From: a virus
Taxonomy: Duplodnaviria; Heunggongvirae; Uroviricota; Caudoviricetes
Direction: 5' to 3' (one strand)
DNA: 25,688 nucleotides
IMG/VR virus record: IMGVR_UViG_2627853701_000015
A program made the position numbers and the translations under genes. Positions 7,301 to 13,819 of the stretch are shown piece by piece (position 1 is the first letter of the stretch; every line of letters begins with the position of its first letter). The notes under the pieces are model-generated. The model was not told the DNA's origin, did not search any database, and saw only the letters and a program-made list of their open reading frames with translations.

Positions 7301-8053
7301 ATGACAATCCCAGAACAGAACAATAACCCGATCGTTGAAATTTCTATCCCTGTTTCGACGCAACAGGCGCTTGAGAAAGTGAATGCCACCAAATCTGCAT
7401 GGCTTGAAGCACGTCGTCAGCAAAAAGCGGCAGCGGATAATATTGCGACAATCCGCCAGCGCCGCGCTGAAATGGAAGCCACGACGAACGCCCTGAATGA
7501 GGAGTGGCGCACGCTATTTCGTGAAAGTCAGGGCGTAGTCTCAAAGGAAATGAAAAAACTGCGCACGGAAATTGCGCTGGGACGAGAAACGCTTGAGGAT
7601 TTTGATGAGCTGCTGGCGGCTCAGGAAAGCGAAAATGCACTTTTGCCGCAGGAGGCTGCGGAATTAGCCGGAAAGTATATCCACGCGCACGACACCCTTG
7701 TGGGTATTCGCGCAAAACAAATCTGGGAAGATTTTATGCAGTCGCATGGAAAAGCACTAATCCAGACACTAAGCCTGCTCAAATCAACAATGGGCAGGGA
7801 AGCCAGCGCAGTTGTCGGTGTGGTGCATTCAGTTAATGACCCGGACACACTGCTGAAAGATTTTATTCATAAACATATCACCAGACCGGCTCTGACTAAC
7901 GATGCGATGCCCGAACAGGACCCCGTGTTTAAACTGGCGGGAGTTGCCCCGGATTATGCGGCCCGTCTGGATTTCAGTAATAAACTCTCTCCAGCAGCTA
8001 TGCATAAAATGAAGGTTCGTCAGGAACGTGCTGAGAAGGAGAAAGCAGTATGA
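7301..8053 (+). CDS. P4 Sid-like / Psu-family late protein
   Basis: 250-aa ORF with AGGTG 5 nt before the ATG; first gene of a coupled operon ahead of the psu-like and delta-like genes; size matches Sid; assignment by position and size only. Confidence 0.5.
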   Translation: MTIPEQNNNPIVEISIPVSTQQALEKVNATKSAWLEARRQQKAAADNIATIRQRRAEMEATTNALNEEWRTLFRESQGVVSKEMKKLRTEIALGRETLEDFDELLAAQESENALLPQEAAELAGKYIHAHDTLVGIRAKQIWEDFMQSHGKALIQTLSLLKSTMGREASAVVGVVHSVNDPDTLLKDFIHKHITRPALTNDAMPEQDPVFKLAGVAPDYAARLDFSNKLSPAAMHKMKVRQERAEKEKAV

Positions 8054-8601
8054 TGGCCCGAGTCACTCCAGACCAAGCGCTTATCAGTTTTAGAAATGCC
8101 CGTATTCTGTGGGCTGGACATAGTGAGAGCCGAAAAGCCGTTGAACAACAGATAGAATCACTCCTCACTGCCATGGAAAAACCAGCAGATTATGCTCGAC
8201 AGCTCGAATTACAGCGGGAACATCTGGATGTGCTGAAATGGCAAATTAACTGTGCTGCGCGCGAATGCATTTACTCGCAGCATCAACTGATGGAGGCCTG
8301 CACAGAAGACGCTCTCAGCAATTTTATGCAGGCGAATGGAGCAGCCCTGACATCTGCACTGGCTCCGTTCCTGAAGGGGCGCGGAGGGGTTGACGTTGCG
8401 TCCCGTATATTACGCAATGCTCTGGTTCGCCAGCTGGCAATAACACCGCCTGAAATTGCCGGGGATTATCGTATGATTCTGGATGAATCCGGTGTGATGC
8501 CTGACCCCATGATGGTTCGTGATTGCCAGAGCTCTTACACCCCTGCACAACAACTGCGCTTTCAGCAACGTCTGGATTACATTAACGGCATGCAGGAGTA
8601 A
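8050..8601 (+). CDS. psu: Psu-like polarity-suppression protein
   Basis: 183 aa; 'KWQINCAAR...FMQANGAALTSALAPFLKG...TPAQQLRF' resembles P4 Psu as I recall it; ATGA-coupled to the upstream gene. Confidence 0.6.
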   Translation: MMARVTPDQALISFRNARILWAGHSESRKAVEQQIESLLTAMEKPADYARQLELQREHLDVLKWQINCAARECIYSQHQLMEACTEDALSNFMQANGAALTSALAPFLKGRGGVDVASRILRNALVRQLAITPPEIAGDYRMILDESGVMPDPMMVRDCQSSYTPAQQLRFQQRLDYINGMQE

Positions 8602-8606
8602 TATTA

Positions 8607-8879
8607 ATGGCACTTAAATGTCCCGAATGCGGTACGACGGCACACGCCAGAACCTCCGCCTATGAAGCACCATCGGTTAAACGCTCATGGTATCAGTGCC
8701 AGAATCTTGAATGTTCCTACACATTTACCGCACTGGAAAGTGTGGATACGATAATCATGAAGCCCCGGCGCAATGAACAGGAATCAGAGAAAGCACAAAT
8801 GCCGGAAAAACAACAGCAAACTCTCAATCGCTATGGCTCCGCGTCAAAGCTGTCAAGCCGTCAGCAAATTCCTGTCTGA
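8607..8879 (+). CDS. Ogr/Delta-family zinc-finger late-gene activator
   Basis: 'CPECGTTAHARTSAYEAPSVKRSWYQCQNLECSYTF' is the C-x2-C...C-x4-C Ogr/Delta zinc-finger pattern; 90 aa, a single Ogr-like unit. Confidence 0.85.
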   Translation: MALKCPECGTTAHARTSAYEAPSVKRSWYQCQNLECSYTFTALESVDTIIMKPRRNEQESEKAQMPEKQQQTLNRYGSASKLSSRQQIPV

Positions 8880-9288: not shown

Positions 9289-9855
9289 TTAAACAGGATA
9301 AAAACCAGAGCTTCCATTCTTATTTAAGTTATGGATTTTATTTGCATCATTAATTTTTATTTGGAACGTCGGACCTTTATTCTCAAGAATTACAATCTGG
9401 AAATTATAGTCCCTTTTGATTAATGCGTGATAAAATGAATCACTGAGACTGACGCTATTAACATCCGATAGAGAACCCCCTCTATCTTTATCAAAGTGCG
9501 TCACTAATGGACTATCAAGCACAACAAATCCAATGAATGGATTCCCTTTTCTTGATAAAAATTCCGCAAAGCAAATGGTAAATATAGCATGCATTACTGC
9601 ACGGGTACCTTTACCAAACATTCCTCGGCGTTTCCCATTGATATTAAAGTCATATGTATCTTCGTCAAATCGCACTTTGTTATCTTTAGAATTTTCAAAA
9701 TTTATATCATTCAAAAAGTCTTGCATCGCTATTTCTATATCATACAAATCAGCTACTGTTAAGGAGTCAAAGTCCTCGGCGGAGTATTTAAGTTCGTCAA
9801 CATCATCTTCTTTATCTTGTAATGAAGATAGAATGCTATGTTTTGTGTGATCCAT
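9289..9855 (-). CDS. ABC/SMC-like ATPase, C-terminal head segment
   Basis: 188 aa; signature-like 'FGKGTRAV', Walker-B-like 'FIGFVVLDSP', D-loop-like 'THFD'; start ATG overlaps the upstream stop (TAATG at 9853-9857); ~28% GC. Confidence 0.55.
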   Translation of the reverse strand: MDHTKHSILSSLQDKEDDVDELKYSAEDFDSLTVADLYDIEIAMQDFLNDINFENSKDNKVRFDEDTYDFNINGKRRGMFGKGTRAVMHAIFTICFAEFLSRKGNPFIGFVVLDSPLVTHFDKDRGGSLSDVNSVSLSDSFYHALIKRDYNFQIVILENKGPTFQIKINDANKIHNLNKNGSSGFYPV

Positions 9856-10445
9856 TAAAAGATTGTCTTTATATTCATAAAGTGATTCAAGAGATGAATG
9901 TATTGTTTTATATTTTTATCTTCTAACGTCTTAAAATCACTTTTTTCTGATTGATAAATTTCATTAACATCATTTTTTCTTAACATAATTAATTCATGTT
10001 CGCGAACATTAGATCCGATTGATTCAATTAATCCTTTCAGCTGGCTTTTGATTTTCAATTTTTCTGCATTACACGACAAAAAACAATCATCATATGATAT
10101 TTCATTTTCTTTTTTTTGCGGTGTATTACAGAACTCACAATAAATATCTGCAAAATTATTTAAATAGAAATTCGCCTGTGATACAACATCTATTCTTTGT
10201 AGATCTATAAAGTATTGGTCTTTAAGAAGACTAAATCTTTCAATGAGTAATGATAAGTATTTTTCCCTGTCACTGATTGAATATAATTCATCACTTAACT
10301 CTTTTAATAATTGCTTCTTATCATCAAGTGCATCAACAATACCTTTCAATATATCTTTCGATGATTCAATATCTTGCTCTACTTTCTCAAGTTCTCTTGA
10401 AACAATGACTTGATCATATTCAGGATAAATTAATTGCGCTTTCAA
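9855..10445 (-). CDS. coiled-coil segment with Cys4 cluster; probably the central part of the same ATPase
   Basis: Charged heptad-like repeats; C-x2-C ... C-x3-C cluster (CEFC ... CFLSC) mid-segment; no in-frame ATG or RBS, and the frame continues upstream to a single TAA at 10476-10478 that ends the Walker A ORF. Confidence 0.45.
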   Translation of the reverse strand: MKAQLIYPEYDQVIVSRELEKVEQDIESSKDILKGIVDALDDKKQLLKELSDELYSISDREKYLSLLIERFSLLKDQYFIDLQRIDVVSQANFYLNNFADIYCEFCNTPQKKENEISYDDCFLSCNAEKLKIKSQLKGLIESIGSNVREHELIMLRKNDVNEIYQSEKSDFKTLEDKNIKQYIHLLNHFMNIKTIF

Positions 10446-10475
10446 TTCCTCATAAATATTTGCAATTTGATTTTT

Positions 10476-11108
10476 TTAAAAATATCTTGCTTTTTTATTT
10501 GGTTTTTCTGCTAAGGAGTTAGTATCATCTCTCTGAGTTAAAAGGAATTTAAATTCAGACTTTCTTTTTGTCTCCTCGCTAGGAATATCAGAAAGAATTA
10601 ACGACTTCTCAGTTAACACTCTTAATTCATCAATACAAAAAAATTCAAAAACATTATTAAGATTAAATTTATGAAGAGTATTACTTAAGTTTGTTCTTAC
10701 TTTAGCCTCTTTGAAATTCAACCTACCATAAAAGTATGATGAAAAACTCTTTTTAGACGAAGCACTTTTGGAAAAAACCATCAACAGATTAGCTTCACTA
10801 ACATTTTCAATACTCGAATCATATAATCTGTAATGGGCGCTATCCTGAAGAGACCTCTCAATTGTCATTACCCTACCTTGAAAATTAAATTCCAGATAGG
10901 CTAAATCATAACCTTGAGCATGATCGATATCTTTATTTTTTAGTTTTTCACTCCCTAATAAATATCGAATCAAATAATATATGTATGTTTTTCCAGAGTC
11001 AGAACCACCATATAAAATAGTCAATTTAGAACCAAATTCAATTATAGCATCTAATTTATTGAATCCGGTTACCTTTATTTTTCTGAACGTAAAAAAATTG
11101 TCATTCAT
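10476..11108 (-). CDS. ABC/SMC-like ATPase, N-terminal head segment (Walker A)
   Basis: 'FRKIKVTGFNKLDAIIEFGSKLTILYGGSDSGKTYIYYLIRYLLG' is the N-terminal strand plus P-loop pattern of RecF/SMC/Rad50-type ATPases; ATG at 11108 overlaps the upstream stop (ATGAATGA). Confidence 0.6.
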   Translation of the reverse strand: MNDNFFTFRKIKVTGFNKLDAIIEFGSKLTILYGGSDSGKTYIYYLIRYLLGSEKLKNKDIDHAQGYDLAYLEFNFQGRVMTIERSLQDSAHYRLYDSSIENVSEANLLMVFSKSASSKKSFSSYFYGRLNFKEAKVRTNLSNTLHKFNLNNVFEFFCIDELRVLTEKSLILSDIPSEETKRKSEFKFLLTQRDDTNSLAEKPNKKARYF

Positions 11109-11559
11109 AATTAAATTCCATATCATATTTGCCAATTTTATTTTTTATAATTGATTGCAACTGCTCATCAGGAATATCACTATATAACTTAACCACCAAA
11201 TTTATATTATGCTCCATCTGCGCAACATATTCATTATGTAGAGAATTTGTAAATGCATATGTTTTTTCAGAAGCTTTATATACAAAACCACGATGTGTAT
11301 AAATTTTTGAGGCTAGTTCATAGCCTTGCAACAAAGCCAATGATTCTAAAACAATCTCTCGTTTTAGGGCTAACTGAGCATCTCTACGGGGTATTGGAGG
11401 ATGAAGACTAATCTCTTCAGGTAAAAAATCCTTAAGATTTACTAAAATAAAATCAAAACAAATAAGCCGTTCAAGGCTTAATGAAGAAGGATAAATAGCG
11501 ACGAGCACTTTCGCCATTCGACATGCCACTTCTAAACTTGAATTATAAATTCTAACCAT
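11101..11559 (-). CDS. hypothetical small protein, middle gene of the hotspot operon
   Basis: 152 aa from the ATG at 11559, which overlaps the upstream stop (TAATG) and has GGTGAG just upstream; the ORF track extends it to a TTG at 11574. Confidence 0.5.
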   Translation of the reverse strand: MVRIYNSSLEVACRMAKVLVAIYPSSLSLERLICFDFILVNLKDFLPEEISLHPPIPRRDAQLALKREIVLESLALLQGYELASKIYTHRGFVYKASEKTYAFTNSLHNEYVAQMEHNINLVVKLYSDIPDEQLQSIIKNKIGKYDMEFNYE

Positions 11560-12176
11560 TATCTCACCGTCCAAATTACTTCACCATCATTAACCAAATG
11601 ATGGCATATTCCTTTTTTATCATTTGCTTCACATATTTTTGATAGTACTGAATGTGCAATTGGTGTCAGAACAGCCTGCTTCAAGACTGCATTACACCTA
11701 ATAAATGCATAATTATGGTCTTCATAAAAGACGGGTTCAATTGAAGATGAAATGTAACATTTCAATGCTTTGAATACATCATCTTTAAATACTTCGCGGA
11801 CAAAAACCTCAAGCGAAGATGCAAAATAAAAATCATTTCTACTATTATTAAAGTGTCGTCTGTATGGATCATCAAGCTCTAAGAAAGAACTATAAGTTTT
11901 ATTTCCATGCTCTGAATAGGCTTGAAGCAGTGCATTAACATATACAGACTCTTTTTTTGAATTGTATGTTGGAATTTCATTTGGAGGGATTCTCACGACA
12001 TACAGCTCGTTAAAGTACTTAAAATAAAGGTGTGTATTTGCAATATCATTTAAAATCAATGATAAGGGTAGAGAGTAAAAAATACTAAAATCAAAATCCT
12101 CAATATATTTTTTTATTTCATCATCTAATGGAATATCAATCTTTTTAGTTATTTTTTTGAAATTGCTGAATCCCAT
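11559..12176 (-). CDS. hypothetical protein; possibly the C-terminal part of the nuclease gene
   Basis: 205-aa ORF with no RBS, overlapping the upstream ORF by 28 nt across an A7 tract (12152-12158); a 1-nt change there would fuse the two frames into ~335 aa. Confidence 0.45.
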   Translation of the reverse strand: MGFSNFKKITKKIDIPLDDEIKKYIEDFDFSIFYSLPLSLILNDIANTHLYFKYFNELYVVRIPPNEIPTYNSKKESVYVNALLQAYSEHGNKTYSSFLELDDPYRRHFNNSRNDFYFASSLEVFVREVFKDDVFKALKCYISSSIEPVFYEDHNYAFIRCNAVLKQAVLTPIAHSVLSKICEANDKKGICHHLVNDGEVIWTVR

Positions 12177-12565
12177 GAATCAAGGACTGCTTTTTTAAGC
12201 TCGTTTTTATTTTTCAATAAATTAGAAAATGTAGTAGATAAATCATAGGGTGCCACAAAAAAGTACTTCTGAGGGATGGGATAATCACCATTCAGAGTAA
12301 AATAGATAAGTTTTCCAAACTCAACTACAACATCAGAGAACCCTAAACTTTTTTTGTACAGTTTGCATTGATAATTATCCCAAGAATAACCTTCTACGTT
12401 AGGATCCGATTTATATCCAACAACGTCTCTACCTTTATCTCCAGCTCCTCCCAAACGTTCGCTCCACGGGTAATCATCTGATTTACAGACAATAAGCCAA
12501 TCATGGACAAATACCTCCCATTGTTCATCATCCCATGTCAATATTTCCGAAAGTGGTTGAGACAC
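12149..12565 (-). CDS. Mrr-like PD-(D/E)xK restriction-endonuclease-fold domain protein
   Basis: 'WEVFVHDWL...GGAGDKGRDVVGY...YQCKLYKK' matches the Mrr catalytic-domain pattern (G-x-G-D-x-G-x-D then Q/E-x-K); GTG start with AAGGAG 7 nt upstream, 3 nt after the int stop. Confidence 0.55.
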   Translation of the reverse strand: MSQPLSEILTWDDEQWEVFVHDWLIVCKSDDYPWSERLGGAGDKGRDVVGYKSDPNVEGYSWDNYQCKLYKKSLGFSDVVVEFGKLIYFTLNGDYPIPQKYFFVAPYDLSTTFSNLLKNKNELKKAVLDSWDSAISKK

Positions 12566-12568
12566 AAA

Positions 12569-13657
12569 TTAACTCCTTTTTAGTCTTTCAAATATCAAAT
12601 TACTGTACCAGTCCATCATAGACTTCCTTCCACTAAAATATTGAGCATGGTTATAAGTCCCCCTAATAGAATTTTTATCTACATGAGCCAACTGGATTTC
12701 AATCCAAGCACTCTCAAAACCTTGCTCATGCAGGATTGTAGAAAGGGTATGACGAAAACCATGTCCAGTGACTTTTCCTCCATACCCAATACGCTTAATG
12801 GCTTGATTTATACTCGCTTCGCTCATTGGCCTATTCGGATCGTTCCGCCCTGGAAAAACATAACGATAGTTCCCTGTCATGATCTTGAGTTCATTGAGTA
12901 AATCTACCGCTTGAGATGATAAGGGCACAAGATGTGGCCTACGCATTTTCATCCTTTCAGCAGGAATTTCCCAAATAGCGTTATCCAGATCAAATTCTTG
13001 CCATAATGCCGCGCGTAATTCGATGGTTCTCACACCCGTAATCATCAGTAATTTCGTGGCTATCTGGACAAGCTTACTCCCGGAGTAACCCTCTAAGGCA
13101 CGTAGAAAATCAGGTATCTCATCAGCTTTTAGGAATGGGAAATGATTGGATTGGTGTACTTCGAGAGCGCTGGAGAGATCAGCCGCAGGATTGTACTCCG
13201 CCCTACCCGTTGCAATTGCGTAGCGAAACACCTCTCCCACAGGCCTTGTTCCGACATAAGGAAAAATGTCGTTCTTAAACGCTTCCATGATGTCTGATGC
13301 ATATCCCGCCGACCATTTAGCAGATTTAAGTTGATGCCACTCTCTGGCTATCTTTTCGAAGGCGTTCTCTGACTCTGTTTGCATAGCTAGCTTTTGCTCT
13401 TTTCGAACCTCACTAGGGTTCTTTCCTTCTGCCACAAGTTTTCGAGCTTCATCACGACGGGAACGAGCATCGGCAAGGGTGATCGTTGGGTAAACACCAA
13501 GCGAGATCATTTTGGGTTTGCCGGCATAGCGATAGCGGAACCGCCAACTCTTGCTTCCATTAGGTTCTATAAGTAATGACAACCCTAGCCCATCTCCAAA
13601 TGTATAGGCTTTAGCTTCAGGCTTAGCGCGGCGAATCTGCATATCGTTTAAAGGCAT
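12569..13657 (-). CDS. int: P4-type tyrosine integrase
   Basis: N-terminus 'AKPEAKAYTFGDGLGLSLLIEPNGSKSWRFRY', catalytic region 'GHGFRHTLST...AHVDKNSIRGTYNHAQY' (R..H-x-x-R...Y); directly downstream of a tRNA 3' end. Start set at the internal ATG (MPLND...); the ORF track extends to 13708. Confidence 0.9.
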   Translation of the reverse strand: MPLNDMQIRRAKPEAKAYTFGDGLGLSLLIEPNGSKSWRFRYRYAGKPKMISLGVYPTITLADARSRRDEARKLVAEGKNPSEVRKEQKLAMQTESENAFEKIAREWHQLKSAKWSAGYASDIMEAFKNDIFPYVGTRPVGEVFRYAIATGRAEYNPAADLSSALEVHQSNHFPFLKADEIPDFLRALEGYSGSKLVQIATKLLMITGVRTIELRAALWQEFDLDNAIWEIPAERMKMRRPHLVPLSSQAVDLLNELKIMTGNYRYVFPGRNDPNRPMSEASINQAIKRIGYGGKVTGHGFRHTLSTILHEQGFESAWIEIQLAHVDKNSIRGTYNHAQYFSGRKSMMDWYSNLIFERLKRS

Positions 13658-13709
13658 GTGTATAGGAATCCAGACCGAACAGGAACATATACACAATCCT
13701 ATACACATT

Positions 13710-13819
13710 CAGTACCGGATTCTACTGGATGGTTACGGACTACTATGGACTTAAAAGAATAAAAAATGTTATAAATCAGAGATTTTATGGACTAATACGG
13801 ACGTTTGAGGAAGTTGAGA
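13710..13819. repeat. att arm region with short direct repeats
   Basis: Repeated GGACTAC/TATGGACT/TACGGAC words between the int start and the tRNA core, as expected for integrase arm-type sites. Confidence 0.35.

Follow-up and report, generated by a model that had tools for sequence, protein, structure and literature searches.

The LmuB ATPases of Lamassu defence systems have been described in some detail in recent years, including the apex of their coiled coil. A 2023 review (PMC10586767) reported CPxCG or a similar motif in many LmuB homologues. In the Salmonella LmuACB system, a zinc-hook dimerisation domain was found with LmuA and LmuC beside the hook, and defence is reported to need this hook (bioRxiv 2025.03.14.643221), while the type I Bacillus protein BcLmuB carries the hook 285-CQYC-288 (bioRxiv 2025.06.23.660979). 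Haudiquet et al. (PNAS 2025, PMC12663957) described short LmuB proteins that have no CxxC motif, a single one or two, and traced Lamassu to SbcCD.

We analysed a viral sequence of 25,688 nucleotides (IMG/VR record IMGVR_UViG_2627853701_000015), referred to in its full length as the window, in which an ATPase gene on the minus strand encodes four closely spaced cysteines. In our analysis, the motif C324-x-x-C327 is very probably the zinc hook of the LmuB family, located in the relic of a Lamassu operon of prophage Sp2, and C342 and C346 very probably lie outside any conserved Cys4 unit.

The window protein shares with the Lamassu LmuB proteins of Salmonella enterica (LmuACB, PDB 9hqu/9hqx) and Bacillus the ATPase head, the antiparallel coiled coil and the apical CxxC, as well as an operon with LmuA (an effector with a CTD) and LmuC (the middle component). 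It differs from the solved chains in that these are only 13-16% identical in the Foldseek alignments to P0001, an intact homologue of the window protein, in that its motif is CEFCN and not CPxCG, and in that the window copy is a pseudogene; its clade also has a conserved Cys 19 residues downstream of the hook. In Rad50 and SbcC, too, an antiparallel coiled coil emerges from an ABC head and has a CxxC at its apex, and after LmuB the best matches in both sequence and structure are Rad50 heads. However, the coiled coil of the window LmuB is much shorter (~85-100 residues per arm), its Walker B motif is hhhhDS and not hhhhDE, it has no Mre11/SbcD partner, and the role of LmuB is defence, not repair. 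The short LmuB clades that Haudiquet et al. describe as having no CxxC motif or two share with the window an evolutionarily plastic apex, within which the extra cysteines of the window are a small variation; unlike the two-CxxC proteins, the second motif of the window is CxxxC, and one of its two cysteines occurs solely in a decayed E. coli lineage.

A Lamassu operon in the P4-like prophage Sp2

The window shows 100% identity with the Sp2 prophage of E. coli O157:H7 Sakai, whose annotation names the surrounding element “prophage Sp2, P4-like phage”, and the region is present at an identity of at least 99% in 308 of 5,426 complete E. coli genomes. The operon LmuA-LmuC-LmuB occupies the defence hotspot of this satellite prophage, between the P4-type integrase and a set of P4-like genes annotated as capsid size determination protein, polarity suppression protein and transcription activator (Table 1). 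No tRNA was found in the window. Since the three genes match the PADLOC models for LmuA, LmuC and LmuB and the Pfam families CTD6 and MC2, the locus is a Lamassu operon and the cysteines lie within LmuB. An intact operon with the same order, LmuA(335)-MC2(152)-LmuB(606), is present in Proteus mirabilis, where LmuB is 85% identical to the reconstructed window protein. No Mre11/SbcD phosphoesterase gene was found beside LmuB, whose neighbours are LmuC (MC2) and LmuA (CTD6).

The two pieces of LmuA cover positions 10-140 and 141-333 of PDLC03852. LmuA is probably a nuclease, as suggested by its PADLOC family and a D...QxK-like motif. The N-terminal fragment (12152-12565) gives only a weak match to Pfam Mrr_cat (E = 0.2), and the intact Proteus LmuA had no significant match in the PDB. 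This fragment contains the pattern GDKGRD...YQCK with Lys68, which a PD-(D/E)xK nuclease could have; the assignment of the effector type is not firm.

Table 1. Features of the Lamassu locus in the window, with coordinates, strand and supporting evidence.
Feature	Position	Strand	Evidence
P4-like genes, other side of the hotspot	7301..8879	+	Sakai ECs_0298 to ECs_0296
LmuB (Lamassu Rad50/SMC-like ABC ATPase) pseudogene	9289..11108	-	PADLOC; three reading-frame fragments
LmuB fragment 3, C-terminal half of head	9289..9855 (ORF 9292-9855)	-	GKGTRAV; Walker B FVVLDS; PADLOC 428-608
LmuB fragment 2, coiled-coil arms and apex	9858..10475	-	Translation; AF2 model of P0001
A5 tract, inferred 1-nt deletion (A6 to A5), LmuB frameshift	9913..9917	-	Frame change
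Fourth Cys, position 346, second turn of descending helix	10071..10073	-	Conservation; AF2
Third Cys, position 342, TAT to TGT (Tyr-to-Cys)	10083..10085	-	Conservation
C-E-F-C zinc-hook motif, residues 324-327	10128..10139	-	Invariance; CPMCG alignment; AF2 apical loop
In-frame TAA nonsense codon, ancestral TTA (Leu)	10476..10478	-	TTA in LSU61; Leu in all A1 homologues
LmuB fragment 1, N-terminal half of ATPase head	10479..11108	-	Walker A GGSDSGKT; Pfam AAA_23, SMC_N
LmuC (ABC-3C middle component 2)	11101..11559	-	PADLOC LmuC E = 2.5e-36; Pfam MC2 PF20288 E = 6e-30; RefSeq
LmuA (putative nuclease N-domain and CTD6)	11559..12565	-	138-aa and 205-aa frames; PADLOC PDLC03852; Pfam CTD6
A7 tract, inferred LmuA frameshift (A8 to A7)	12152..12158	-	Frame change
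P4-type integrase IntS, hotspot border	12569..13750	-	Sakai ECs_0289; ORF

The ATPase gene is LmuB

The ATPase gene is LmuB both by HMM and by fold, and it is a member of the family by descent, not by function. PADLOC PDLC03863 (LmuB) is the best model for each of the three fragments (E = 8.4e-50, 1.6e-21 and 5.1e-37), which match profile positions 3-199, 231-412 and 428-608 of 610, respectively. The initial annotation had treated the ATPase as one joined protein; the homology to LmuB does extend along its whole length, but the gene is not a single ORF, as it is divided among the three fragments listed in Table 1. In the RefSeq annotation of Sakai, LmuB is the pseudogene ECs_0293, “AAA family ATPase”.

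The GGSDSGKT of the first fragment and the FVVLDS of the third fit Walker A, Gx4GK[ST], and the Walker B pattern of short Lamassu, hhhhD[Q/S/T/E] (Haudiquet et al., PMC12663957), and both are invariant in our alignments: G34, S36, D37, G39 and K40 of the Walker A region in alignment A1, which comprises 26 homologues of 20-86% identity, and D532, S533 and P534 (P0001 numbering) in the LmuB alignments. The third fragment is also DUF3732-like, with a Pfam DUF3732 match (E = 5e-5) that is below the curated cut-off.

Intact LmuB homologues of 606 residues are available at 85% (P0001, from Proteus) and 73% (P0002) identity. The AF2 model of P0001, which has a mean pLDDT of 85.7, shows two long helices (233-318 and 339-439) joined by a loop (319-338), and these helices form an antiparallel coiled coil inserted between the two halves of the head. 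When this model was compared with known structures by Foldseek, the top matches were the solved LmuB chains 9uxh, 9hqu, 9hqx, 9nyg and 9ux7 (E from 1e-15 to 1e-11), and Rad50 came next. At the sequence level, the solved LmuB chains were reached in the PDB only with a family profile, which found Salmonella LmuB 9hqu at E = 5e-18; the single sequence of P0001 was insufficient, and phmmer gave no match with it against the PDB.

Position and conservation of the four cysteines

The reverse complement of positions 10071-10139 reads, on the minus strand, CEFCNTPQKKENEISYDDCFLSC. The four cysteine codons, all of them TGT, are at 10139-10137, 10130-10128, 10085-10083 and 10073-10071, and their spacing is CxxC-x14-CxxxC. 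Four of the six cysteines in the ~604 residues of the LmuB reading frames thus fall within 23 residues (p = 0.0024 under random placement). Chance clustering is ruled out because the CxxC is invariant. The translation bears out the initial annotation, which had placed “CEFC” and, 14 residues later, “CFLSC” near the midpoint of the protein, as the cluster corresponds to residues 324-346 of the reconstructed protein of ~606 residues.

We determined the conservation of these positions in alignment A1 and in alignment A3; the latter was built after a profile search of 1.84 billion representatives had yielded 4,423 relatives, of which the best 150 were aligned (20-28% identical to P0001, with one at 51%). 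Both C324 and C327 are present in all 27 sequences of A1 and in all 150 of the best 150 of 4,423 relatives, for a total of 176 homologues. The hook consensus in the best 150 of 4,423 is C-P-x-C-G, from which the clade of the window departs with CEFCN and CDNCGH. With the family profile, the CxxC of the window aligns with the CPMCG of LmuB in PDB 9hqu. In the AF2 model of P0001, C324-x-x-C327 lies in the 20-residue loop, with a small beta-bridge around the motif, at an apex of moderate confidence (pLDDT 64-72). The proposal in the initial annotation that CEFC is a zinc hook at the coiled-coil apex is therefore upheld by the invariance of the motif in 176 of 176 homologues, by the alignment with 9hqu and by the model, in which the motif is part of an apical loop and not of a non-apical unstructured linker.

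The other two cysteines behave differently, so that of the four cysteines whose conservation had been proposed as a check, the first pair is invariant, the third is never conserved and the fourth is conserved in part. Position 342 is Tyr in all 20 homologues of the close clade (43-86% identical) and I, V, L, F or Y, never Cys, in the best 150 of 4,423; overall, Cys is found in 0 of 175 homologues. Cys342 is present in all the E. coli fragments retrieved and is, by the alignments, a substitution of Cys for Tyr that is confined to the E. coli lineage. Position 346 is Cys throughout the close clade (43-86% identical, n = 20) and in the homologue P0033, while among the best 150 of 4,423 it is Cys in 54 (36%), Ala in 31, Val in 28, Ile in 14 and Ser in 14, a spectrum that would be expected of a small or hydrophobic position at a helix interface. 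In the AF2 model of P0001, the descending helix carries positions 342 and 346 in its first two turns, and C346 is a small/hydrophobic position of this helix that is conserved in part of the family only. A second CxxC anywhere in the protein is found in only two of the best 150 of 4,423.

Since position 342 is never Cys in the homologues and position 346 is Cys in only part of them, the four cysteines do not form a conserved Cys4 unit; the apparent Cys4 cluster resolves into a CxxC that never varies, one Cys conserved in part and one mutation specific to a lineage.

Two further conserved segments flank the hook. On the ascending helix, ~20-30 residues before the hook, P0001 residues 291-305 (window ~10194-10238) contain the strongly conserved motif RFxxLxxxYxSDLxR, in which L295, D302 and R305 are invariant in both A1 and A3 and R291 and Y299 show little or no variation. 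On the descending helix, P0001 residues 349-352 (window ~10053-10064) include the invariant Glu349 and the near-invariant Lys352. These residues may form a hook-proximal interface for LmuC and the CTD of LmuA.

Other readings of the coiled-coil apex

The loop that follows the hook contains more potential metal ligands than the two cysteines of the CxxC. In the 15 residues after the motif, among the best 150 of 4,423, His is enriched ~6-fold (10.6% vs 1.7%) and Cys ~4-fold (2.7% vs 0.6%). The pattern C-x2-C-x(4-10)-H-x(1-6)-[H/C], as in CPxCGAxPEHQHxxxxC[DE]G[DN], fits 114 of these best 150 of 4,423, and with the His-x(1-6)-[His/Cys] after the hook (P0001 328-345) each chain has four residues that could bind metal. 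In the loop, at least two additional His/Cys occur in 120 of the best 150 of 4,423, exactly one in 10 and none in 20. The clade of the window is of the type with no loop ligands and with Cys346. This pattern of extra ligands beside the hook finds no mention in the LmuB literature cited here. One may think that the apex of a large LmuB clade is a zinc knuckle complete in itself, or else a hook supplemented by auxiliary ligands, and that its ligand set was remodelled in the clade of the window. We hold this tentatively, as an unlikely reading that would bear on the family and not on this inactivated locus; under it, Y342C in E. coli would have no more than incidental meaning, the gene being dead.

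A related explanation, which we consider doubtful, is that the enterobacterial clade has a modified hook in which C346 is a third ligand or a redox partner that replaces the His...[His/Cys] pair of the loop, either by completing the metal site or by forming an inter-protomer disulfide. The enrichment of His and Cys past the CxxC would fit this explanation, as would the presence of C346 in each of the 20 sequences of the close clade (43-85% identity) and its distribution in the best 150 of 4,423, where Cys346 is found in 14 of the 20 sequences without loop His/Cys vs 40 of the 130 others (Fisher p = 0.001, a statistic that ignores phylogeny). Against it, the C/A/V/I/S spectrum at position 346 is that of a buried coiled-coil core position, C346 would lie, according to the model, seven residues into a helix that begins 12 residues past the CxxC, and no fourth conserved ligand was found. 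Cys346 and a loop Cys do not co-occur either (18/54 vs 40/96, p = 0.38; best 150 of 4,423), which argues against a dedicated pair of C346 and a loop Cys. Given its conservation across the close clade and its enrichment in sequences with no loop His/Cys, C346 may nevertheless act at the apex beyond helix packing.

It is highly improbable that the four cysteines bind one Zn per protomer as a single intramolecular Cys4 unit, a knuckle or finger, at the apex of a distinct clade of ATPases. A knuckle had been named as a possibility in the initial annotation; the clustering of the four cysteines within 23 residues, the i, i+4 spacing of C342 and C346 on the first turns of the descending helix, near the CxxC loop in sequence, and the four potential ligands per chain at the apex of many distant relatives speak for such a unit. 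However, at position 342 all 175 homologues have Tyr or a different hydrophobic residue, Cys being confined to the decayed E. coli copies; the databases searched yielded no intact protein that combines the four cysteines, and with Cys346 in only 54 of the best 150 of 4,423 relatives the intramolecular Cys4 unit is largely refuted. The idea of a different ABC-ATPase clade had been based on the hook not being a standard feature of Lamassu ATPases; given that LmuB hooks have been published and that both PDLC03863 and Foldseek identify the gene as LmuB, a separate clade is rejected.

Inactivation of the operon

The Lamassu operon of Sp2 is a relic with three lesions, a nonsense codon and a frameshift in LmuB and one frameshift in LmuA (Table 1), an inactivation that the initial annotation had missed. 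In strain LSU61, the base at window position 10477 gives TTA where the window has the stop codon, and the sequence reads “YFLKNQ”. At the A5 tract, the LmuB frame of “TLEDK” switches to the frame of “KYKTIHSSLESLYEYKDNLLMDHTKH”, which matches “EGKKYKKIHLLLESLYEYKDNLLMDYTKH” of P0001. In LmuA, the frame that ends in “AISKK” and a stop codon gives way at the A7 tract to the other frame with “KKITKKIDIPL”, and the intact homologue reads “SISNKISKKNSIPL”; the two LmuA pieces align end to end with the intact 335-aa LmuA of Proteus.

We found no intact E. coli copy: every one of the 309 matching E. coli records has an identity of 99% or more, and the copies inspected among them are broken. In a database of 5.8 billion proteins, the E. 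coli copy of LmuB is present as fragments only, some of them with further lesions.

The three ATPase ORFs are almost certainly not a truly split, still functional LmuB with the middle ORF as a separate coiled-coil subunit, even though the stop codon of the second ORF overlaps the ATG of the third (TAATG at 9855), in a manner that resembles translational coupling, and the pieces are separate CDSs in RefSeq for many strains. This reading is rejected because the intact homologues at 85% identity are single chains of 606 residues, the homology extends upstream of the ATG of the third ORF in a shifted frame, the TAA codon is TTA in LSU61, where a different extra frameshift occurs, other strains have further lesions, LmuA is frameshifted too, and the Sakai annotation is that of a pseudogene. 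Neutral decay, not a split functional gene, explains the LmuB fragments.

The lesions vary among strains. LSU61 is an early-branching O157:H7 strain that has kept the TTA codon, and an extra T in a homopolymer at the window-equivalent position 9940 truncates its LmuB elsewhere; it shares with the window the LmuA frameshift and Cys342. In the database sequence P0186, which stands for 68 member sequences (DEC5C and DEC3D among them), the reading frame shifts in an A8 run inside the hook loop. In P0027, a deletion fuses LmuC to the coiled-coil part of LmuB, and P0185 is another of these E. coli fragments from the database.

A 2026 survey found recognisable defence pseudogenes to be rare in P4-like satellites, and the Lamassu of Sp2, with its three lesions, is therefore an uncommon example.

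Proposed mechanism and implications

The gene identities, the conservation pattern, the apical position in a model and the lesions come from our own analysis; for zinc binding, dimerisation and activation we draw on the literature of related systems. By analogy with Rad50 and the solved LmuB complexes, the CxxC motifs of two intact LmuB protomers would be juxtaposed at the tips of their coiled coils and would presumably share one Zn2+ through 2 + 2 cysteines. According to the literature, an LmuB2 dimer of this kind would sequester one LmuA by way of one LmuC, close to the part of the coiled coil next to the hook; the sensing of DNA ends and the ATP-dependent engagement of the heads would then release LmuA, and the freed LmuA would oligomerise into an active nuclease, by which the infection would be aborted. 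As both LmuB and LmuA are inactivated, none of this LmuACB mechanism can operate in O157:H7.

The CxxC zinc hook of LmuB is an already described feature, and there is nothing new at this locus, which is in itself of little import, being a published LmuB hook in an inactivated operon with no new clade or metal site implied. The cryo-EM papers leave the dimerisation of short LmuB open because the Zn site is not visible, no Zn atom being resolved at the hook in their maps (bioRxiv 2025.03.14.643221; 2025.06.23.660979). The extra His/Cys ligands in the loop of the wider family, and the alternative with Cys346 found in the clade of the window, could guide mutagenesis on the dimerisation of short LmuB.
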